Notes: a model not told the origin generated them from the sequence alone. Shown: positions 1 to 62,200, numbered from the stretch's first letter. The stretch is 64,000 bases of DNA from Escherichia coli 042 (GCF_000027125.1 NC_017626.1), one strand, 5' to 3'. Translations and numbers: made by a program.

Positions 1-531
1 TACGAATAATAGTTCAACACACAGGTAATCCCATGCGTTAAATTTAACGTTTAAAAAATACTGAATAGCGAAGATCGTACACGTTGCAATAGATGCAATT
101 GCGATCGGAACCGTGAGAGATTTATTGGAATTGAGAGATTGAAAATAGCTATTTGAGAAATTAAAAAATAAAGCAACAGGTAAGGCTAACACAATAGGAA
201 TATAGACATTATATTGATAACCCTGAACAAAAGAATACAAACAAAACAGTAGTAAAACAATTACTCCAGAAAGAATTTTTTGTGCAAACGTTACATTTAA
301 TAGTTTTATTTTATCTGTAGAATCATTATATTTTTTTATAACAAACAGATCCACACCAAAATCAGTAACCACCCGAAGGACTTCGAGAAAACCAACTAAA
401 AAAATGAACTCTCCGCCTACATCTTCTCCTAAGGAACGAGTAATCAGAATTATTGCAAGTGTTTTAAAACCGAAGTAACATATTTTATTAAATAGCGAAA
501 AAATGCCATCGGAGAAAATTTCTTTGATCAT
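1..531 (-). CDS. O-antigen flippase Wzx-like, 5' portion only; gene continues beyond window start
   Basis: Manual translation of minus strand from ATG at 531-529: 177 codons open to the window edge in very AT-rich DNA; product MIKEIFSDGIFSLFNKICYFGFKTLAIILITRSLGEDVGGEFIFLVGFLEVL... is hydrophobic with a Wzx-type N-terminal pattern. Not in the ORF track because the stop lies outside the window. Confidence 0.5.
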   Translation of the reverse strand, partial: MIKEIFSDGIFSLFNKICYFGFKTLAIILITRSLGEDVGGEFIFLVGFLEVLRVVTDFGVDLFVIKKYNDSTDKIKLLNVTFAQKILSGVIVLLLFCLYSFVQGYQYNVYIPIVLALPVALFFNFSNSYFQSLNSNKSLTVPIAIASIATCTIFAIQYFLNVKFNAWDYLCVELLFV

Positions 532-572
532 GTCATGCCTACTGGTGAGATCCTGGTCGAAAAATAAACCAC

Positions 573-1904
573 TTACTGACCATGATAAATTTTATTTTTA
601 ACAAGTAATGGAGATATAAGAACAATCGGCAATGATTTTAGAAGAAAAGCCAATGGCAAAATCAGTTCACCACGAACAGCATAAAAAAATCCAGATATCA
701 TGGAGATGGCAACAAAGTTTATTATTATCCGTTGATTATTTAGTCCCCATTTAATAAAAAGCATCACCCCTGATAAATACAGTAAATAAATAATCACTCC
801 CAAGTTTAGACTCAGCAACGATGACTCTAACAATCCTGAAGATGACAACGCAATACCAGAGGATACATCACCTAAAACAATTATTGAAAAATCTTTTGCG
901 ATTTGTTGATCATCAAGAAAACCAAGACCGCTTAGCGGTAATACTTGTGTGAATACCACAGCGGGATGAAGTTGATCCCATCCTGATGATTGCATATCAA
1001 ACAAATTCTGCATCCCCCCAAGAGTAGAGGATAGCGAATCTAAAACAATGCCAATATAAATCATAAAATCGATTTGGTACCCTTCACGGAAATACGATAC
1101 CATCGAGAAGCATAAAAAACCGGCGATGAGAAATATTGGTTTTGAGAGTTGCTTAAATAAATTTCTTACTCTATACTCATTAGAGTACATATATAGTATA
1201 AAAATACAAATCACTGAAAAGAAAAACTTATTACGTATTCCAATAGCTAAATCAGATGCAAGTAAAACAAATGCAATAACTTTAATGTAGGTCGGTGTTT
1301 TAAAATAAAAAGTGGACAATGACATTACAACTGCAAAACCACTAATAGCACGAATAAAAAATGGAACTTGGGATAGCAATTCTTCGCTTTCAGTATAAAT
1401 TGCTAAATGCCCTTCTCCTGAATTCAATATAAACATAAGATAAATTAATATTTTGTATAATTGACACAGTGCAACAATAGAAAACAAAATATAAAATAAA
1501 CTAGTTAAATATCTTTTTTCTTCTTTTATGACAGTCTCTGTTGTTTGCAAGTAAAGGATGGAATTGATCAACATCCCCCAGATACAAATTATTTCAAACC
1601 CATGATTTGCGTTTTTAAAATAGTAAAGATAAATCGATGGCAAACCAATAATCAAAGAAAAAACGAATGCAAAAAGTAAGGTTAGTGATAAATAGCGAAC
1701 TCTATTAATATAATAATAGAACATCAAAACAACTAATAGCGCTGTAGATATAGTGGCTAAAATATCAATATACACTTGCGATACAAATGTATCCGCCCCT
1801 CCCCACAAGAAACATGAGGATAGTGAAAGAAATACAGAAAAATATATAGCCAGATGTTTAAACTGTATTTTATTGCACAATAATGAATAATATTGCTTAT
1901 GCAT
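573..1904 (-). CDS. polytopic membrane protein, putative O-antigen polymerase (Wzy-like)
   Basis: 443-aa ORF made of many hydrophobic segments and no recognisable enzymatic motif; position inside an O-antigen cluster. Wzy assignment is inferred from context. Confidence 0.45.
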   Translation of the reverse strand: MHKQYYSLLCNKIQFKHLAIYFSVFLSLSSCFLWGGADTFVSQVYIDILATISTALLVVLMFYYYINRVRYLSLTLLFAFVFSLIIGLPSIYLYYFKNANHGFEIICIWGMLINSILYLQTTETVIKEEKRYLTSLFYILFSIVALCQLYKILIYLMFILNSGEGHLAIYTESEELLSQVPFFIRAISGFAVVMSLSTFYFKTPTYIKVIAFVLLASDLAIGIRNKFFFSVICIFILYMYSNEYRVRNLFKQLSKPIFLIAGFLCFSMVSYFREGYQIDFMIYIGIVLDSLSSTLGGMQNLFDMQSSGWDQLHPAVVFTQVLPLSGLGFLDDQQIAKDFSIIVLGDVSSGIALSSSGLLESSLLSLNLGVIIYLLYLSGVMLFIKWGLNNQRIIINFVAISMISGFFYAVRGELILPLAFLLKSLPIVLISPLLVKNKIYHGQ

Positions 1905-2087
1905 AGTAATTAGCTTTACTAGTGAAGTAACTCATTTGAAAAATAAGAAACAGTTAATTTTACAATCTCTTATTCGGGATGAACGCAAATAAAAACACCA
2001 ATGCTAAATATAAACAATTTATAAACAATCTATTACTGAGCGGTTAAATGACAAACCGCTCAAGAGTAGAAAAAAGTTTATATTTTT

Positions 2088-3509
2088 TTACAAAAGAGTA
2101 ACTTTATGCAAAACTTCTAACACTAATTTTTCAGCTTTTATTATGTTATCTGCTTCTGCATAGCATCGCAATTCAGGTGCGTTGCCTGACGGTCGCAAAT
2201 GGATTATTGAACCATCACTTAGTGTCAATCTTAACCCGTCAATTGTATCCACCGATTGTACATGAAGATCGACAAAGCCTATTCTTTCGATAAATTCTTG
2301 AGGATTTTCTTGAGCTGACGCGATAATGCTTTTGCTTTTGCTTGTTGCAAAATTTTGAACTCTATTTGAGTAGGTAAATCGTGGTGGCAACTCCGCCAAG
2401 AGTTTTGAAATAGTCACATTATTTTTTATAGCCAGTGCCAGTACCATTAAAGCAGGCAAAACAGCATCTCTTGTTGGAAGCGCTTTAATCATACCGCTGT
2501 TATAATTTACATCGCTACCTAAAAGATACCCACCGTTAGCCTCAAACCCTGCAACCCTATCAAAACTATTATTCAGAGAATCAAACGCTGAAATGACGTA
2601 TGGTGAACCAATTTTAGTCAGCGTTACATGATTAAACCACCCGCAAGTCTGAATAACCGTATTACAACTTACAGGTACAGCTACCGCTTCAATATTCATT
2701 GCCTTTGAGCAAAATAGTCCTAATATATCACCCCGTAACCAAACGCCATTTTCGTCAGCAACCAAAGGACGATCGCCATCACCATCGGTAGAAAAAATCA
2801 TATCGAGGTCATACTCAGATGACCAGTGTAAAGCTTTTTCTTCATCTTCTTTTGATACTGCTTCAGTATCAATAGGCACAAACTCATCACTTCTACCAAT
2901 ACTTACAACTTCAGCACCAAGCTTACTGAATATTTCTGAATAAAGATCCCGTCCCGCACTTGAATGTTCATAAATCCCGATACGTTTACCTTTAAATATA
3001 TTTGAAAAAATTGAAGTGTTTCTCTCGATATAAGTATCAGCGGCACGCTTTGAACATTGTAATTCTGGCAATACAGTTACATCAGGATACTCTTTTTCAG
3101 CATGTATAATGCTGTTCTCATTTTCTTTTGAAATTTCCCCGTCTGGACGATAGAATTTCAAACCATTTCTATCAAATGGAATATGACTTCCAGTAACCAT
3201 TATTGCAGGAATCCCATCGGCAATCGCTTGATTTGCCAAAGCTGGAGTTGGAATTACACCGTAGTAAATAGGTTTAATACTACATTCCAACAATGCTGCT
3301 GCGCAAGCTTGTGCCATAGCATAGCTGCTTGGGCGATTATCTATTGCGAGCGCAACCTCTTTAAAAGAAAAATCCTTCATCATTACATCGATAAAAGCAT
3401 AAGTGAATGCAGCACACACGTTGGGTGTAAAATCTTTCACTAATCCACGAGCACCACTTGTACCAAATGCAATTCCGCTATTTTTAATTACATCATTGGT
3501 AATATTCAT
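2088..3509 (-). CDS. phosphomannomutase/phosphoglucomutase-family sugar phosphate mutase (manB-like)
   Basis: ORF-track protein has a [11 protein letters not shown] active-site serine loop and DGDGDR metal-binding loop typical of alpha-D-phosphohexomutases. Start trimmed to the ATG at 3509 (MNITNDV...), which avoids overlap with manC. Confidence 0.7.
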
Positions 3510-3513
3510 ATAA

Positions 3514-4929
3514 TTATTTATCCTCAACACGACCATATTTATCACTTAGGCGCACAATATCATCATCACCTAGATATACACCCGACTGAATCTCAATTAC
3601 TTCTAATGGTATCTTTCCTGGATTTTCCAAGGTATGAACTGTGCCAATTGGTATGAAAGTTGACTCATTTTCAGTGACGAAAAAAGTGCGTTCGCCGCAA
3701 GTCACCTTTGCAGTACCAGCGACAACCACCCAATGCTCAGCTCGATGATGATGCATTTGTGTTGAGAGACATTCACCAGGCTTAACGGTAATACGCTTTA
3801 CCTGATAACGGTCGCCACGTTCTACAGAATCATAACGTCCCCAAGGACGATAGACTTCGCGATGGGATATATGTTCGCTACGTTTTTGCTTTTTAAGAAT
3901 TTCGACAATCTTCTTTATGTCTTGTACGTTGTCTTGCTGTGCTACCAGGAGCGCATCTTTAGTTTGAACTATAATAAGGTTATTAACTCCTACAGTGCTG
4001 ATCAGTGAACCTTCAGAGTAAATGTAGTTGTTCCTGCTGTCATAGTTAATTACATCGCCATGCGATACGTTTTCATGTTCATCTTTCTCTGATATTTCCC
4101 AAAGTGATGTCCATGAACCGATGTCACTCCAGTCAGCATCAAGTGGAATAACTACACAATCCTGAGTTTTTTCCATTACCGCATAATCAATTGACTCATC
4201 GGGACATTCTGCAAAGACATCAGAATTTAATCTGATAAAATCTAGATCAGTACTAGCACTGGAAAGCGACTCTTTACACGCTGCTAAAATATCAGGGCGA
4301 AATTTTTTCAATTCATCTAAATATACGCTCGCCTTGAACATGAACATACCACTATTCCACAAATAGCATTTTTGTTCGAGATAATTTTTAGCCGTTTCTA
4401 AATCAGGTTTTTCGACGAAAGAATTTACTTTAAATACAGAGTTTTTAACTTGTTCGCCCTTTTTAATATAGCCATACCCAGTTTCAGGTTTGGTCGGGAC
4501 GATGCCAAAAGTCACTAACTTATTGTCAACGGACTCTTGTTCTGCAGCTAAAACAGCTGCATGGAAGGCTTCAATATCCTGAATAGCATGGTCAGCAGCA
4601 AGAACCAGCATATGATGATCGCCATGGAGTTCTAGAGACTTTAGAGCAGCCAGCGCAACGGCGGGCGCAGTATTTCTACCTACAGGTTCTAGAATAATCT
4701 GGAAGTCATCCACACCGAACTGTCGCAATTGTTCAGCAACAATAAATCTATGCTCATTATTGCTAACAATGACAGGAGGCAAACAATTTAATCCATCAAG
4801 TCTCTTCAACGTTTCCTGGAGCAAACTATTTTCATTAATCAATGATAAAAATTGTTTCGGGTATAACGAACGCGAAAGAGGCCATAAGCGAGTACCAGAA
4901 CCACCGGCCATAATAATTGGGATAATCAT
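3514..4929 (-). CDS. manC: mannose-1-phosphate guanylyltransferase / mannose-6-phosphate isomerase (type II)
   Basis: 471 aa; N-terminus [27 protein letters not shown] is the nucleotidyltransferase signature; a cupin-like C-terminus; clear paralogue of cpsB at 17171-18607. Confidence 0.85.
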
Positions 4930-4930
4930 T

Positions 4931-6133
4931 TTATTTAACAGACTCCTTAATTTTCTGGATATATGGGCTCAATTTAGCTTCCCATGAAAAATTCTCACCG
5001 ATAAACTTTTTCGCAACTAATGCTGTTTCGGTATATTTATCCAGATTTGTTATAAAATAATTTAATACACGTAAATATTCTTCTTTTGTATTGGCAACAT
5101 AAATCTCCTTACCCTCCTCTGCTCCCAAGCCTTCAAAGCCTACAGTAGAAGAGATACAAGGTAATCCCAACGCCATATATTCAAGTACCTTATTTTGGAT
5201 ACCTGCCCCTAATCTAATAGGACATACACCAATATGCCCATCAGCTGCTGCATAAGTTATGCTATCAACTTCACCTGTGACAACAACGCCAGGCTGGCTT
5301 TCTAACCAACTCTTATCTTTATCTGTAATACGTCCGATGACCTTAAATTCAAAATTACCATGCTTGTTAAGAAATGGTAAAACTTCCTTGGTGAACCATC
5401 TCACACCATCCATATTTTGCAAAGAATATAAATTACCTATAAATACAAGGGTTATCTTTTTATCTTTAGCTATTTTTCGTTCTGAAAAAGGTAAGCTAAC
5501 GGCATCAACACCATTTCCACAGACTAATACATTATTCGGACGGTCTGGATATAAATAATCGGAGTCAACCTGTGATACCAAAGTAGTCAAGCTGAACTTG
5601 TTATTTATAGTTCGCTCATATCGTTCGAGTCTTTTTTGTTCAAAAGAATATACAAATGTTTTTAAACTCAATAAAGATGCTTTTTCCTTTACTCGTTTAT
5701 AATTAAGTGAAATGGCATCGGTCATCTCTAAAAAATTTATATCTTTATTCTCTTTCACATAATCACCAACCCTTATCAAATGTGAAAGAGTTGCAGAATG
5801 TTCAGGTAATAACTGCTTAAGTTTATCTTCAAATTCTTTAGATTTATAATACCCAATCTGTAGGGGAGTATTTGAAAACAAAGAGAATATGACATTTAAA
5901 ATAGATTTTTTCTTTGAAAGATATACTCTGTGAACACTACTAAAAACTTCACGATCATATTCATAGTTGAGCTCTTCGCGTTTATCACACAGACTCAGCA
6001 ACGTAAGATCATAATGCTTAGACAGTTCTTTACAGATCTTATAGATACGTAATCGATCCCCACCAATGACAGGAAACGGGAACCGTGGAGTCAAAACTAA
6101 TATCTGTTTCTTATTTATATCAATATTACTCAT
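4931..6133 (-). CDS. glycosyltransferase, GT4 family (GT-B fold)
   Basis: 400 aa; C-terminal half has the GT4 pattern (GNG..., E-x7-E-like [10 protein letters not shown]); ATG start; located in the O-antigen cluster. Confidence 0.7.
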
Positions 6134-7130
6134 AAATCTTTCTCAATTCATTTTCAAATAAAATATGTTCATGCAGAGCTTTCCTTTCGACACTGGGTGA
6201 ATTATCTACCAAGTATGAATAGACTTCATAATACTCAGAATAGTAAGTATAAAAGAAAATATTCGAATCCTTTTGTTCGCGGAAAGCAGAGATCCGTGTG
6301 CATATAACATTTTTGCATGTGAGTTTTGCTTCAGCTAAAGTCCTTCCATACCCCTCGGCAAGCGAATGAGCCCAAACAATTTTAGAATTACAATATAGTT
6401 TGACGACTTCCTCTAAAGAAACAAAACCAATAATTTCAATTTCTTTATCTGTATCCCGCCCATCAATTAAGTCGTTAACCTTGCTAATACCATTCCCACA
6501 ACCTAATATTTTTAATGGTATTCTTTCTTCCCTTGGGATTGAAAAATAATAGTCCAGAGCTGTGCCTAGATCCTTATTATCCCCTAAACCTGAAACTAGA
6601 AGTAAATATCCAAGATCTTTTATTTCGGTAACATTAGCAATTTTCTCAAATGAGAAAAATGGATTTGGGAGCAGGATAGATTCTATACACTTAAATAGCG
6701 ATATTCTCTTAGATACTCGCTGAGTGCTTTGAGAAATAAATATTACTTTCTTTGCTAAAAAAGATGAAAAATAAATACAGACTTTCACATAAATGGCAGC
6801 AAGATTTCGTTTATTTTTCTTAAGACTAATGAAGTCATGAATTATAACAATTGCCTTACCTAATAACAAGTCAATGATGGAACTACTATTATAGGGATAT
6901 ATATTATACTTAGTTCTATAAAATATACCCATAATTGGTATTAAAAGCTGCTCTACTATTATAAAAAGAACATTCAGAAACCATGAAGGCAGCTTATGGA
7001 ATGCTTTTGGACATGCAACATAAATAACCTGAACATTATTGTCTCTTAACTTTTGCACAAGTTCAGAAGTATAGATCGGTATTCCTCTTTTCAAAATACC
7101 ATCAAAAAAATTATTTACAATTACTTTCAT
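6126..7130 (-). CDS. glycosyltransferase, GT4-like
   Basis: ORF-track frame 6126-7163 begins with TTG; the internal ATG at 7130 (MKVIVNNFF...) has an AAGAG Shine-Dalgarno ~8 nt upstream. C-terminal LAEGYGRTLAEA motif resembles GT4 enzymes. Confidence 0.6.
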   Translation of the reverse strand: MKVIVNNFFDGILKRGIPIYTSELVQKLRDNNVQVIYVACPKAFHKLPSWFLNVLFIIVEQLLIPIMGIFYRTKYNIYPYNSSSIIDLLLGKAIVIIHDFISLKKNKRNLAAIYVKVCIYFSSFLAKKVIFISQSTQRVSKRISLFKCIESILLPNPFFSFEKIANVTEIKDLGYLLLVSGLGDNKDLGTALDYYFSIPREERIPLKILGCGNGISKVNDLIDGRDTDKEIEIIGFVSLEEVVKLYCNSKIVWAHSLAEGYGRTLAEAKLTCKNVICTRISAFREQKDSNIFFYTYYSEYYEVYSYLVDNSPSVERKALHEHILFENELRKIYE

Positions 7131-7229
7131 GTTTGCTCTTAAGTTTATTTCAGATATTATCAATAGTATAAAAATAGTCAGGATTATTATTTCTTATTTT
7201 GAGAACGCATCATATAAACACAATCTTAC

Positions 7230-7268
7230 CACGCTACCGCCCCTGGCTTAACAGCTACCAGTGCACTA
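7230..7268 (-). promoter_or_regulatory. JUMPstart element with ops (GGCGGTAGCGTG), RfaH-dependent antitermination site in the O-antigen operon leader
   Basis: Minus-strand sequence TAGTGCACTGGTAGCTGTTAAGCCAGGGGCGGTAGCGTG matches the 39-bp JUMPstart consensus and ends with the ops element. Confidence 0.85.
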
Positions 7269-7523
7269 GCAAAATGCCAAAGATGTACCCCGCCCCGCTA
7301 GCTATCGCAAAGCTATCTTAAATTCAAACGCCAATTGTCTTACCAAATGCTGTCAGAAACAAGGATAAATCCAACAAAAAATAGATTAAACTTAGTAGGT
7401 TAACTCGTTGTTATTCTTTGTTTTAAAAAGAAAAACGACAGTAACATTCCTTTGTTTAAAGCATAGACGCCGGGATGTTAGCTGCCGCTATTTATCTAAA
7501 TTATTGTTACATTGGCTTGGGAT

Positions 7524-8417
7524 CTATTCCCCGAGCAACTTCTCAATGCTCTTACGGAACTTTGGCCCTTCCTTCAGGTTGCGCAGTCCATACTTCACAA
7601 ACGCCTGCATATAGCCCATTTTTTTACCGCAGTCGTAGCTGTCGCCGGTCATCAGCATGGCATCAACGGACTGTTTTTTCGCCAGTTCGGCAATAGCATC
7701 AGTCAGCTGAATACGCCCCCATGCACCAGGTTGCGTGCGTTCAAGTTCCGGCCAAATATCGGCAGAAAGCACATAGCGACCAACGGCCATGATGTCTGAG
7801 TCCAGCGTCTGCGGCTGATCCGGTTTTTCGATAAATTCGACGATGCGGCTGACTTTACCTTCACGATCCAGTGGTTCTTTGGTCTGAATGACGGAGTATT
7901 CAGAGAGGTCACCCGGCATACGTTTTGCCAGCACCTGGCTGCGGCCCGTTTCGTTGAAGCGCGCAATCATGGCAGCAAGGTTATAGCGTAGCGGATCGGC
8001 GCTGGCGTCATCGATAACAACGTCTGGCAGTACCACGACAAATGGGTTGTCACCAATGGCAGGTCGTGCACATAAAATGGAGTGGCCCAAACCTAAAGGT
8101 TCGCCCTGACGCACGTTCATAATGGTCACGCCCGGCGGACAGATGGACTGCACTTCCGCCAGTAGTTGACGCTTCACGCGCTGTTCAAGGAGAGATTCTA
8201 ATTCATAAGAGGTGTCGAAGTGGTTTTCGACCGCGTTCTTGGACGCGTGAGTTACCAGGAGGATTTCTTTGATCCCTGCAGCCACAATCTCGTCAACAAT
8301 GTACTGAATCATTGGCTTGTCGACGATCGGTAGCATCTCTTTGGGAATCGCCTTAGTGGCAGGCAACATATGCATCCCAAGACCCGCTACAGGAATAACT
8401 GCTTTTAAATTCGTCAT
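7524..8417 (-). CDS. galF: UTP-glucose-1-phosphate uridylyltransferase paralogue GalF
   Basis: Protein [30 protein letters not shown]... matches GalF as I recall it; start trimmed from the ORF-track MDEI extension to the ATG at 8417. Confidence 0.9.
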
Positions 8418-8591
8418 TATTTCATCCACCTGTAAAATGGTTGCTGAATTATAGCTTGTTCGATTTTTTTCGCCAGCATCAATTACCCTGAATTGATTAC
8501 TGAATTACTTGTGATGTTACGCCGCTTCGTTGTGGATTGCAGTAGCATTGTTCCTAAGTATGGCTCCATTTTTCCAGGAATGGTCGCAAAT

Positions 8592-9986
8592 CTACTCTCT
8601 CCGTTCTGGCAATCTAAAGTTAATCTTTTCCACATTAACAATATGGTGATTAACCCTGTCGATATCGACGGAGCTTTGCCCTCTTTCATTCACCGCATGA
8701 ACATTTGCAAGAGACAGCAGTGTTTCTTTTTTCGCCATAAAGACGCCGCGAACGTCTTTGCGCATGTCGAAGTTCATGCTCAATGCGGGTCCAACAGAGG
8801 ATTCCTGCATCACTTTGATATTTCGTATAAAAAGATGTTGCGGTTTGTTGTGTAACTCCAACGAGGCACGCTTCATCTCAATGTTAGTCAGTGCAACAAA
8901 GGAGACAGCATTCCCGGCAGAGATTTGGATACCGCGCAATTTGTAAGCAAGGTGGGTGTTATCCAGCTGAATATTATTCACTCGGAAATTTTGCGGTATC
9001 GAGAGATATTTGCCTTTAATTACCCCATAACCGATTAACATCCCGGCGCTATTAATCATTTCAATATTATCAATCACGAAATTGTCACAACCGTAAATAG
9101 CGACCGTGGCGTTATCAATACCTGCTTTCTTACTGAAATCCGGCGTGATATTGCGGGCTTTGATATTACGAATAACAAAATGTTTACCATTTTCAACATG
9201 GATCAGTTGTCGACAATCCGATCCCGTGATATTCGCCACGACAAAGTTTTTCACTGCCTGGTCTTCCGGGTAGTTATTATCATAAGTACTCCCCGCAAGG
9301 CCTATGCCGATTCCCCAGTTGATTTTGCCGTTGGTACAGTTGATGCGCTCGATGATGTGGTCGGAGATCAAAATATCACTGTCGTTAATCGCCACGTTCC
9401 ATTCAATGGCGTCCCCCTGTAAGTCGCTGAACTTACAATTGGTGATGTTGGCACCGATAATCTGGTTATGAAATCCCTGACGTAAGATGGCGTAATTAGC
9501 GTGGCTGACAGTGAGGTTATCGATGGTCAGGTTGCGCATGACCCGTTTGTTTTTGCCGCCGATATAAATCTGCGTTACTGGGCCAAAGCCGCTCATCGCC
9601 AGCCCTTTGATGGTGCAGTCAGAGCCGCGCACATCCAGGGTGATGTTATGCATACTGCCGCCCTCCTCCCCTGTCACCTGGCTGCCGTCTTGTAAGACAA
9701 AACGCCCTCTGCCGTTGCCGCGCAGGCTTCCAAGGATGTGTAACGTTTTGCCAGGAGGAATGAAGATGCCGGTGTTGATATTTTCACAAACCAATCCGGC
9801 AGGCACGACGACCGTTTGCCCTTCGCTGAAGGCTTGTTTAAATGAAGCAATCCAGTCGTGTGGGTTGTAGTCGTTAATGTTAACGCTTTGCCGGGCAGGA
9901 AGTGCTCGGGCGAAAGGCGTATGAAGGAAGGCAAGCGCCGAGCTTACCGTCAGGAAAGTGCGTCGGGAGAGTTTTTTAAATGGCAT
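8592..9986 (-). CDS. wcaM: colanic acid biosynthesis protein WcaM
   Basis: 464 aa, same length as K-12 WcaM; signal-peptide-like N-terminus; last gene of the wca operon, adjacent to galF. Confidence 0.88.
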
Positions 9987-9996
9987 ACGTTCTCCT

Positions 9997-11217
9997 CTAT
10001 AAAGCTTGCAGCAAGCTGGCGAGTTCTCGATTAATCACCTGCTGGTTAAAATCATGTTCGACTTTTTCGCGCGCACGTTTGATAACCGGAGCCAGTTCGT
10101 CGGTGTCCAGTTGGCTAAACGCCGCCAGTCGTTGCGCCAGTGCACGGGCATCGTTCTCAGGCACCAGCCAGCCGGATTTGTCAGCCTCCACCAGTTCCGG
10201 TATTCCGCTATGCAGAGTAGAAACCACCGGAATGCCGACCGCCATCGCTTCCATTAGCGCCACCGGAATGCCTTCCATATCACCATCCGCACCTGTAACC
10301 GATGGCAACAGGAAGACATCCGCGTCGTCGAGCATCGCTTTCACTTCGTGGCTCGGTTTAAAGCCCGGCATCTCCACCACATCTTCCAGTTGATATTGTT
10401 CGATGAGGGTGCGCAGGCGTCGTTCCCACGGGCCAATGCCGAGGATGCGATAGCGAAATGCCACGCCCTGCTCTTTCAACTGACGGCAGGATTCGATCGC
10501 CACATGCAGGCCTTTTTTCTCGGTTAAGCGTGCGACGGAGATGATTTCCAGCGGTATTGCGGGCGCTTTCACCGGACGCGGGCTAAAACGCGTCATGTCC
10601 ACGCCCATGCGCGATACGGCAATTTTTTCCCTCGGGCAGCCCATTTTTTGCAGCCTTCCGGCCCAGAGATCGCTGATCGGTAGCATCAAATCGCCACGGC
10701 GAAACAGTTGCTGATATTCGGGGGTGTAGTGGTTGAGCACTTCCCGACTGGAGATATCAATGCCGTGGAAGATAGTAGCGATTTTGCCGCGAATGACACC
10801 CAGTTCCCGTAGTTTTGCTGCGGTTACCCCCGCCGGGCCAAAATGAGCGATGAACACATCGGCATAAAATGGTGTTGCGACCTGGCCGCAAATGGCAGAC
10901 AAAATCAGGTTCCGCGACTCGGCACCATAGCGTTTGAGGTTGAGCGCCTGCCAGGTATTTTTGCGATGAATGCCGCGTAAGGTCTGGCTGGCGCGGTGGC
11001 GCAGCTTCGCCACTTTGCCCGTAGGTTCGTCCTGTAACCAGCGGGTTCTGGCGGCAAGGTTGTATTTCGTCCATGCCGCGTGGGTGTTTTGTGTGTCGCC
11101 TTTTTGCAGCGCGACAATCTCCACCTCAAATCCCATATCAATAAACGCAGTGATTTGGTTGAGAACGAAGGTTTCCGACGACAGCGGAAATTTCAGTAAA
11201 AAGAAGCCGACCTTCAT
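9997..11217 (-). CDS. wcaL: colanic acid glycosyltransferase WcaL
   Basis: 406 aa GT4-type protein in conserved wca order. Confidence 0.88.
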
Positions 11218-12555: not shown

Positions 12556-12745
12556 GCCTGATGCGACGCTGGCGCGTCTTATCAGGCCTACAAGACCCGA
12601 GCACAGAACCGTAGGCCGGATAAGGCGTTCACGCCGCATCCGGCATTCAGTGCCTGATGCGACGCTGACGCGTCTTATCAGGCCTACAGGTCCCGAGCAC
12701 AGAACCGTAGGACGGATAAGGCGTTTTACGCCGCATCCGGCAACC
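12556..12745. repeat. REP/BIME cluster (several palindromic units) between wzxC and wcaK
   Basis: Repeated GCCTGATGCGACGCTGGCGCGTCTTATCAGGCCTAC and CCGGATAAGGCGT...CGCCGCATCCGGCA units in alternating orientation. Confidence 0.85.
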
Positions 12746-31545: not shown

Positions 31546-31584
31546 CACGCTACCGCCCCTGGCTTTTTAGCTACCAATACACTG
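31546..31584 (-). promoter_or_regulatory. JUMPstart element with ops (GGCGGTAGCGTG) in the wza leader
   Basis: Minus-strand sequence CAGTGTATTGGTAGCTAAAAAGCCAGGGGCGGTAGCGTG; shares the ...AGCCAGGGGCGGTAGCGTG core with the element at 7230-7268. Confidence 0.85.
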
Positions 31585-47811: not shown

Positions 47812-47992
47812 AAGAAATCCTTTCTTAGAGAATTATTGAGGTCCGGTATCATACCGATTGCAATAATGAAATAAGAGCAAACGAAGAAACTTTCAGAATT
47901 AGGCCCGGCGGCGCAGAAAATTTTGCTATTCGCCTCGCAAGAACGAAGAGCCGTCGATTGACACTAAGGGCGGAGTGACATAATTTCAGGAG

Positions 47993-48134
47993 TGAGGGTT
48001 AGGGAGAGGTTTCCCCCTCCCCCTGGTGTTCTTAGTAAGCCTGGAAGCTAATCACTAAGAGTATCACCAGTATGATGACGTGCTTCATCATAACCCTTTC
48101 CTTATTAAAAGCCCTCTTCTCCGGGAGAGGGTTT
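47993..48134 (+). ncRNA. sibA: Sib antisense sRNA (type I antitoxin), unit 1 (SibA-like); coordinates approximate
   Basis: Sigma70-like promoter TTGACA (47958-47963), 17-nt spacer, TAATTT; fully antisense to ibs unit 1; ends at a stem-loop CCCTCT...AGAGGG followed by T residues. Confidence 0.7.
48032..48091 (-). CDS. ibsA: Ibs type I toxin peptide, 19 aa (MMKHVIILVILLVISFQAY)
   Basis: Manual translation of the minus strand; hydrophobic Ibs-family peptide encoded opposite the Sib RNA. Confidence 0.8.
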   Translation of the reverse strand: MMKHVIILVILLVISFQAY

Positions 48135-48327
48135 CCCGTTTCAGCGTCCCGCTGAAATCGTCGGCTTACCTCCTTTCGCCCTGAATGCAGTCTATCGCTA
48201 ACGCGTGAACAAAATAGTTTCCTCTGTGATTATTGCGTAACGACTCGCAAAGAATATTTGCTGGCAGGATCGCAGACTGCAAAGCCTGCAGATTGACAAT
48301 CTTATCGTGAAGGCATACTTTCAGGAG

Positions 48328-48465
48328 TGAGGGTAGAGCGGGGTTTCCCCCGCCCTGGTAGTCTTAGTATGCTGGGTAGCTAATCACTAAGAGCACCACG
48401 ATGATGAGTATCTTCATCATGACCCTTTCCTTATTTAAGGCCCCTTCCTCGGGAGGGGCTTTCCC
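48328..48465 (+). ncRNA. sibB: Sib antisense sRNA, unit 2 (SibB-like); coordinates approximate
   Basis: Promoter TTGACA (48293-48298), 17-nt spacer, TACTTT; terminator stem GCCCCT...AGGGGC plus T-run. Confidence 0.7.
48364..48420 (-). CDS. ibsB: Ibs type I toxin peptide, 18 aa (MMKILIIVVLLVISYPAY)
   Basis: Manual translation of the minus strand, antisense to Sib unit 2. Confidence 0.75.
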   Translation of the reverse strand: MMKILIIVVLLVISYPAY

Positions 48466-48655
48466 GTTTCAGCGTCCCGCTGAAATCGTCGGCTTACCTC
48501 CTTTCGCCCTGAATGCAGTCTATCGCTGACTTGCGGATAAAATAGTTTCCAGTGTGATTATTGCGTAACGTCTCGCAAAGAATATTTGCTGGCAGGATCG
48601 CAGACTGCAAAGCCTGCAGATTGACAATCTTATCGTGAAGGCATACTTTCAGGAG

Positions 48656-48793
48656 TGAGGGTAGAGCGGGGTTTCCCCCGCCCTGGTAGTCTTAGTAAGC
48701 TGGCCAGCTAATGACTAAGAGCACCACGATGATGAGTAGCTTCATCATGACCCTTTCCTTATTTATGGCCCCTTCCTCGGGAGGGGCTTTCCC
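48656..48793 (+). ncRNA. Sib antisense sRNA, unit 3 (additional SibB-like copy); coordinates approximate
   Basis: Near-identical to unit 2 with a 328-bp period; promoter and terminator are conserved. Confidence 0.65.
48692..48748 (-). CDS. Ibs type I toxin peptide, 18 aa (MMKLLIIVVLLVISWPAY)
   Basis: Manual translation; differs from the unit 2 peptide at two positions. Confidence 0.75.
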   Translation of the reverse strand: MMKLLIIVVLLVISWPAY

Positions 48794-62079: not shown

Positions 62080-62113
62080 TACAGCTGCATTTATTAAGGT
62101 TATCATCCGTTTC

Positions 62114-62200
62114 GCTGAAAAACATAACCCATAAAATGCTAGCTGTACCAGGAACCACCTCCTTAGCCTGTGTAATCTCCCTTACACGGGCTTATTTTTT
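62114..62200 (+). ncRNA. cyaR: CyaR (RyeE) Hfq-dependent sRNA
   Basis: GCTGAAAAACATAACCCATAAAATGCTAGCTGTACCAGGAACCACCTCCTTAGCCTGTGTAATCTCCCTTACACGGGCTTATTTTTT matches the CyaR sequence as I recall it, including the intrinsic terminator. Confidence 0.85.

Follow-up and report, generated by a model that had tools for sequence, protein, structure and literature searches.

The two genes at positions 2088-4929 of the window, by which we mean the whole stretch of 64,000 nucleotides of Escherichia coli 042 DNA that was analysed, very probably form the ordinary manC-manB module of an O-antigen cluster of the O17/O44/O73/O77/O106 type (the 'O77 group'), in which an RfbK-type ManB supplies GDP-mannose. 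The feature was known before and carries a correct annotation: RefSeq has a 'phosphomannomutase' at exactly 2088-3509 (WP_001027885.1) and a 'mannose-1-phosphate guanylyltransferase/mannose-6-phosphate isomerase' at 3514-4929. A second GDP-mannose module is familiar from mannose-, fucose-, colitose- and perosamine-containing O-antigen clusters of E. coli and Salmonella, and it comes in a CpsG-like and an RfbK-like form. A duplicated rfbM/rfbK pair in O9:K30 was reportedly described by Jayaratne in 1994. The genes and signals discussed below are collected in the table.

Table. Features of the window that bear on the manC-manB module and its colanic-acid counterpart
Feature	Position	Strand	Basis and remarks
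wzx, O17/O44/O73/O77/O106-family flippase	1..531	(-)	Cut by the window start; 5296-6531 of locus L001 corresponds to window -704 to 531
wzy, O17/O44/O73/O77/O106-family O-antigen polymerase	573..1904	(-)	ORF, RefSeq
Hairpin, 9-10-pair stem, 8-nt loop	2037..2062	(-)	-17.5 kcal/mol, z = -4.6; about 26 nt past the manB stop, in the 183-nt manB-wzy spacer
manB, rfbK-type phosphomannomutase, 473 aa	2088..3509	(-)	ORF, profiles, RefSeq, homology
manC, 471 aa; GDP-mannose pyrophosphorylase with type II PMI-like C-terminal domain	3514..4929	(-)	ORF, profiles, RefSeq
GT4-family glycosyltransferase, presumed mannosyltransferase	4931..6133	(-)	Role presumed from the O-unit structure (PMC7685785)
Glycosyltransferase, first gene of the O-antigen operon	6126..7130	(-)	ORF list, RefSeq; RefSeq ATG at 7130
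JUMPstart, 39 nt, with ops GGCGGTAG (7234-7241)	7230..7268	(-)	Rfam RF01707, 59.2 bits against 35 (gathering); spacer between galF and the first glycosyltransferase gene
galF	7524-8417	(-)	
cpsG, colanic-acid phosphomannomutase, 456 aa from MKKLTCF, TASHNP loop	15699..17069	(-)	NF011943, 1054 bits against 801
cpsB, colanic-acid GDP-mannose pyrophosphorylase, 478 aa	17171..18607	(-)	PRK15460, 1116 bits against 859
JUMPstart of the colanic-acid (wca) operon	31546-31584	(-)	RF01707; the operon, with cpsG and cpsB, runs from about 8.6 kb

The first 8.4 kb of the window lie entirely on the minus strand and hold galF, the JUMPstart element, two glycosyltransferase genes, manC, manB, wzy and the start of wzx. 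Positions 1-7600 match the O-antigen cluster of E. coli O17_K12a, and that of 91 other complete genomes, with 100% identity; in these genomes wzx and wzy carry the RefSeq label 'O17/O44/O73/O77/O106 family', and with only 2 mismatches to the O17-group cluster over positions 1-8790 the locus belongs to this group. Because 92 complete E. coli genomes contain this 7.6-kb stretch with practically 100% identity, manB and manC are real genes and not chance open reading frames. manC and manB belong to the O-antigen operon whose leader is marked by the JUMPstart element between galF and the first glycosyltransferase gene; for that first gene, a mechanical ORF list extends the start to a TTG at 7163. 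The window has 8 copies of the ops octamer GGCGGTAG, where 1.4 would be expected. The backbone credited to this cluster is the repeat unit ->6)-Man-(a1->2)-Man-(a1->2)-Man-(b1->3)-GlcNAc-(a1-> (PMC7685785; PMC4732683), and since it consists of three Man residues and GlcNAc, GDP-mannose is the sole nucleotide sugar that the cluster must provide.

Both genes encode complete enzymes with their expected domains. The manB reading frame spans 2088-3545, and an internal ATG at 3509, 4 nt past the manC stop and with GAGGA 11 nt upstream, gives the 473-residue product on the minus strand. On TIGR01479 ManC reaches 755 bits (cut-off 373), which makes it a member of the ManC/GMP-PMI family, and contains the nucleotidyltransferase (PF00483), beta-helix (PF22640) and cupin/PMI (PF01050) domains. 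ManB has the four-domain PGM_PMM architecture (I-IV), with the Pfam domains PF02878, PF02879, PF02880 and PF00408 all above their gathering thresholds. CpsG and CpsB exceed their own equivalog and subfamily cut-offs. The window hence holds two mannose-1-phosphate guanylyltransferases, both above curated cut-offs, and two phosphomannomutase-type genes, as an earlier note on this DNA had counted them. The catalytic loops of ManB are preserved: the phosphoserine loop T106-G-S-H-I-P111, with Ser108 as the catalytic serine by homology; the metal loop TDGDGDRP, in which D242, D244 and D246 are assigned to Mg2+ binding by homology; the sugar loop G321-FEANGG-327, which includes Glu323 and Asn325, again by homology; and the phosphate loop R439-PSGNAPELR-448, in which Arg439 and Ser441 were assigned in the same way. 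The phosphoserine, metal and phosphate loops align with those of CpsG, GlmM and Pgm, placing ManB in the alpha-D-phosphohexomutase superfamily.

Within this superfamily ManB belongs to a large clade typified by Salmonella RfbK. It is 62% identical over its full length (474 aligned positions) to a protein that NCBI names 'O-antigen biosynthesis phosphomannomutase RfbK [Salmonella enterica]'; the reference was a 100%-identical database cluster of 2343 members with the name RfbK, whose rfb gene context we checked. Protein searches returned at least 7998 clusters at E <= 1e-50 to Salmonella RfbK, indicating a very large and uniform clade. The TGSHIP loop was present in all 212 homologues retrieved, the other three clade motifs, including SGNAPE(L/F)R, were invariant or nearly so in the best 120 homologues, and the median length among the matches listed was 475 aa. 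A neighbour-joining tree placed ManB within the RfbK-type clade, the deepest member of which was Brucella ManB (PDB 4HJH), and apart from CpsG, GlmM and Pgm, which lie outside the clade at 19-25% identity. At the DNA level, 332 of the 5426 complete E. coli genomes carry this type of manB, 93 of them at 99% identity or more and 239 at 60-80%. The three divergent loci that we opened were all other E. coli O-antigen clusters (an O115 cluster, a cluster with the order gmd-fcl-gmm-manC-GT2-manB, and a third one in strain 13KWH46), with ManB proteins 58-62% identical to that of the window and manB either adjoining manC or one GT2 gene away. The same manC/manB module is found in Aeromonas and Photobacterium. 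In every locus examined manB adjoins manC or has a single glycosyltransferase gene in between, often together with gmd-fcl-gmm. In GDP-fucose-type clusters with the order manC-GT2-manB, the GT2 gene lies at 10074-10820 of locus L003 (E. coli KBN10P04869) and at 5253-6008 of locus L007 (Aeromonas); this arrangement suggests a conserved mobile block common to E. coli and Aeromonas.

None of the families in an NCBIfam scan of ManB reached its cut-off, the only matches being sub-threshold GlmM and PMM/PGM models. ManB is not a GlmM by these profiles (110 bits against 448 for TIGR01455, 170 against 439 for TIGR03990; 24% identity to E. coli GlmM), nor is it a PMM/PGM of the CpsG/AlgC type (22 bits against 801 for NF011943, 61 against 618 for NF007088). 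As every model stayed below threshold, the scan could not name the clade, and with no curated NCBIfam model that reaches its cut-off, the names given to RfbK-type proteins come from similarity alone. Our literature searches found no paper that sets out the two ManB lineages explicitly.

The comparison with the colanic-acid copies separates what is distinctive about ManB from what is not. Both phosphomannomutases of the window share the superfamily, the four-domain fold, the phosphoserine, the DxDxDR metal loop and the Arg/Ser phosphate loop, and by analogy they would also share the reaction. They differ in the phosphoserine loop, TGSHIP in ManB and TASHNP in CpsG, which is visible in both translations and had been noticed earlier, and in the sugar loop, FEANGG compared with GEMSAH; MAFFT misaligned the sugar-binding loop across clades, and we used the BLASTP pairing of GFEANGG with GGEMSAH. 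ManB and CpsG are 24% identical, and ManC and CpsB 60%. The view that ManB is no simple duplicate of CpsG is upheld by an identity of 22-24% and a score of 22 bits on the CpsG model (cut-off 801), and so is the proposal of a different phosphohexomutase subfamily, since ManB sits in a separate clade from CpsG and is about as far from it as from GlmM. The surplus of about 30 residues that had been attributed to ManB is in reality 17 (473 against 456 aa), and in the alignment it consists of an 8-residue N-terminal extension and several short insertions.

Where the earlier note has to be revised is in calling manB atypical. Phylogenetic placement of the 2088-3509 product agrees with the note in separating it from CpsG: the protein groups tightly with canonical O-antigen ManB/RfbK enzymes (58-75% identity), among which TGSHIP is the common form, and the separate clade is the classical RfbK/ManB lineage of O-antigen phosphomannomutases, so manB is not atypical. 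A substrate preference other than that of CpsG, which had been suggested as a possibility, finds no support in this placement. Annotation pipelines should accordingly not call a TGSHIP-type ManB atypical.

Several known systems are close to the module. Salmonella enterica RfbK of groups B/D has TGSHIPF(D/E) and SGNAPELR, is 477 aa long compared with 473 for ManB, and is encoded directly downstream of manC (RfbM). Its cluster differs from that of the window in that it makes another O antigen, which is galactose-initiated, and continues with wbaP, and 38% of the RfbK residues differ from ManB. Using gene order, product sizes and Pfam domains to assign the Salmonella rfb gene names, we read the locus as prt-tyv-wzx-wbaV-wbaU-wbaN-manC-manB-wbaP-gnd, that is, serogroup D1. 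According to PMC5765510, ManB and ManC of Salmonella (group B) were purified and kinetically characterised, and ManB is a phosphomannomutase (Elling 1996, as cited there); the two enzymes are 21.7% and 58.2% identical, respectively, to the E. coli K-12 (colanic-acid) enzymes (PMC5765510). As these values match the 24% and 60% obtained here, and as the RfbK cluster was found, we infer that the enzyme characterised from Salmonella belongs to the RfbK type. The closest relative of ManB, 75% identical, comes from a Salmonella cluster that is colinear with the window (galF-GT-GT-manC-manB-wzy-wzx-gnd); it differs in species and by an amino-acid divergence of 25% in ManB. This cluster is probably that of serogroup O:6,14 / H. 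According to DebRoy et al., Salmonella O:6,14 has the same four-sugar backbone as the O77 group of E. coli (PMC4732683), and the 75%-identical ManB of the colinear cluster fits this.

The closest solved structure is that of a Brucella melitensis protein of the same clade, named 'phosphomannomutase' (PDB 4HJH; 40% identity, E = 1e-95). Its phosphoserine loop reads TGSHIPDDRNG, and it has the same GFEANGG and SGNAPELR motifs as ManB; unlike ManB, it is an alphaproteobacterial paralogue. The entry is described as an unpublished structure of a phosphoglucomutase in crystals with glucose-6-phosphate (PMC7762576). Some activity on glucose phosphates in the RfbK-type clade is therefore possible. Brucella manBcore mutants are rough, and a natural rough strain carries G103E in the TGSH loop (PMC7762576).

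The phosphohexomutase superfamily works by a ping-pong mechanism, which for mannose phosphates passes through mannose-1,6-bisphosphate. By analogy with this textbook scheme and with characterised homologues, phospho-Ser108 of ManB would donate its phosphate to mannose-6-phosphate, giving mannose-1,6-bisphosphate; the intermediate would reorient, return its 6-phosphate to Ser108 and leave as mannose-1-phosphate, with Asp242, Asp244 and Asp246 holding Mg2+. ManC would then condense mannose-1-phosphate with GTP to GDP-mannose, the predicted donor for the three Man residues of the O77-group repeat unit. O-antigen operons are read through from the JUMPstart/ops leader with RfaH, and the wca operon depends on Rcs induction. 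Standing behind a JUMPstart/ops leader of its own, manC-manB would thus make GDP-mannose for the O antigen independent of the separately regulated cpsB/cpsG.

Three other readings were weighed against a plain supply of GDP-mannose by this pair. With two complete GDP-mannose modules less than 15 kb apart and cpsB/cpsG already supplying GDP-mannose, manC-manB might be thought a redundant or decaying duplicate that has no role of its own. This is hardly credible, however, given that both reading frames are intact and keep all catalytic motifs, that 93 genomes carry manB with at least 99% identity, and that the O-antigen operon has its own JUMPstart leader. The colanic-acid operon, for its part, is Rcs-controlled and poorly expressed during normal growth at 37 C. 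DebRoy et al., moreover, list 56 O-antigen clusters of E. coli with manB and manC (PMC4732683). Slightly less far-fetched, though still very improbable, is the idea that the main substrate of ManB is glucosamine-6-phosphate, glucose-6-phosphate or another sugar phosphate, with CpsG acting as the real phosphomannomutase for both polysaccharides. It could appeal to the best NCBIfam matches of ManB, which are GlmM-type models (all sub-threshold, 170 bits against 439), to the phosphoglucosamine mutases that follow 4HJH among the PDB matches, to the Ile of the phosphoserine loop where other clades have Asn, to FEANGG in place of GEMSAH, and to the description of 4HJH as a phosphoglucomutase with bound glucose-6-phosphate (PMC7762576). 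Yet the GlmM score is far under its cut-off (110 bits against 448), and manB lies beside manC or one glycosyltransferase gene off in every locus examined, GDP-fucose modules included. Mannose and GlcNAc are the only sugars of the O unit, and housekeeping genes provide UDP-GlcNAc. ManB is also 62% identical to a phosphomannomutase that was purified and characterised, as reported in PMC5765510.

A milder proposal is that window manB is an ordinary member of its clade and that the RfbK-type clade as a whole differs from CpsG/AlgC-type enzymes in mechanism or specificity. This is conceivable because Ile replaces a conserved Asn in the phosphoserine loop and Asn replaces Ser in the sugar loop; we consider it unlikely, albeit less so than either of the readings above. 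Possible traits of the clade could be a strict specificity for mannose phosphates, a different dependence on glucose-1,6-bisphosphate, or channelling with the cognate ManC. To our knowledge, far less work has been done on the fine specificity of the RfbK clade than on that of AlgC-type enzymes. Literature searches returned no structure-function study of the clade, and the sole paper found that cites 4HJH calls the structure unpublished.

The ordinary O-antigen module and its colanic-acid counterpart also differ in base composition, with a GC content of 38% in manB and 40% in manC compared with 56% in cpsG and cpsB. Reeves et al. give 36-41% for Salmonella manBC, and 98.7% manB DNA identity in one pairwise serogroup comparison of their table (PMC3715488). 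The similarly low GC of manB and manC points to a foreign, low-GC origin. At the DNA level, no similarity is detectable between manB and cpsG. Between manC and cpsB it is confined to three patches of 65-76% identity, and exact matches within the two gene pairs (manB/cpsG and manC/cpsB) reach 14 nt at most. In the O14 type strain a homologous deletion took place between cpsG and a CpsG-like manB copy (PMC7685785); since manB and cpsG lack DNA similarity, an event of this kind would not be expected in O77-group strains. Of the 5426 complete E. coli genomes, 4689 gave megablast matches to cpsG, at 5725 places in total and as many as 6 in a single genome, and 737 gave none. Many E. coli thus carry extra CpsG-like manB copies, presumably in O-antigen or capsule clusters, an alternative to the RfbK-type solution.

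Turning to possible regulatory signals, the hairpin behind manB is not followed by a U-tract, so that instead of terminating transcription it may serve to stabilise or process the mRNA. In scans for promoters and terminators the window did not exceed the counts of shuffled sequence, and for this reason we do not claim an internal manB promoter. The spacer between cpsB and cpsG contains a match to the Rfam 'algC RNA' motif (RF02929; 17074-17123, (-); 78 bits against 33.8 for gathering), which is absent before the O-antigen manB, where the spacer is only 4 nt; a literature search on this motif found nothing relevant.

The remainder of the window may have a different history from its O-antigen end. 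From position 1 to about 9500, a part that extends from the O-antigen genes through galF into the start of wcaM, there are 4 mismatches in 9500 nt to O17-group E. coli. From about 9507 onwards differences fall mostly at multiples of 3 nt, and over the rest of the window even the best match among the 5426 complete E. coli genomes has an identity of only about 97.4-97.8%. A divergent Escherichia lineage thus seems to have gained the O77-group cluster in a recent recombination event, one junction of which lies in wcaM. Outside the polysaccharide genes we observed a CyaR sRNA gene at 62112-62197 (+) (RF00112, 100.7 bits), and the wcaK-wzxC spacer has a match to Rfam naRNA4, a REP-derived nucleoid-associated RNA, at 12614-12684 (+). 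Three tandem SIB RNAs (Sib/Ibs-type antitoxin, RF00113; 140-150 bits each) follow one another at intervals of about 330 nt, at 47958-48106, 48293-48435 and 48621-48763 (+); K-12 has two copies at the corresponding locus.
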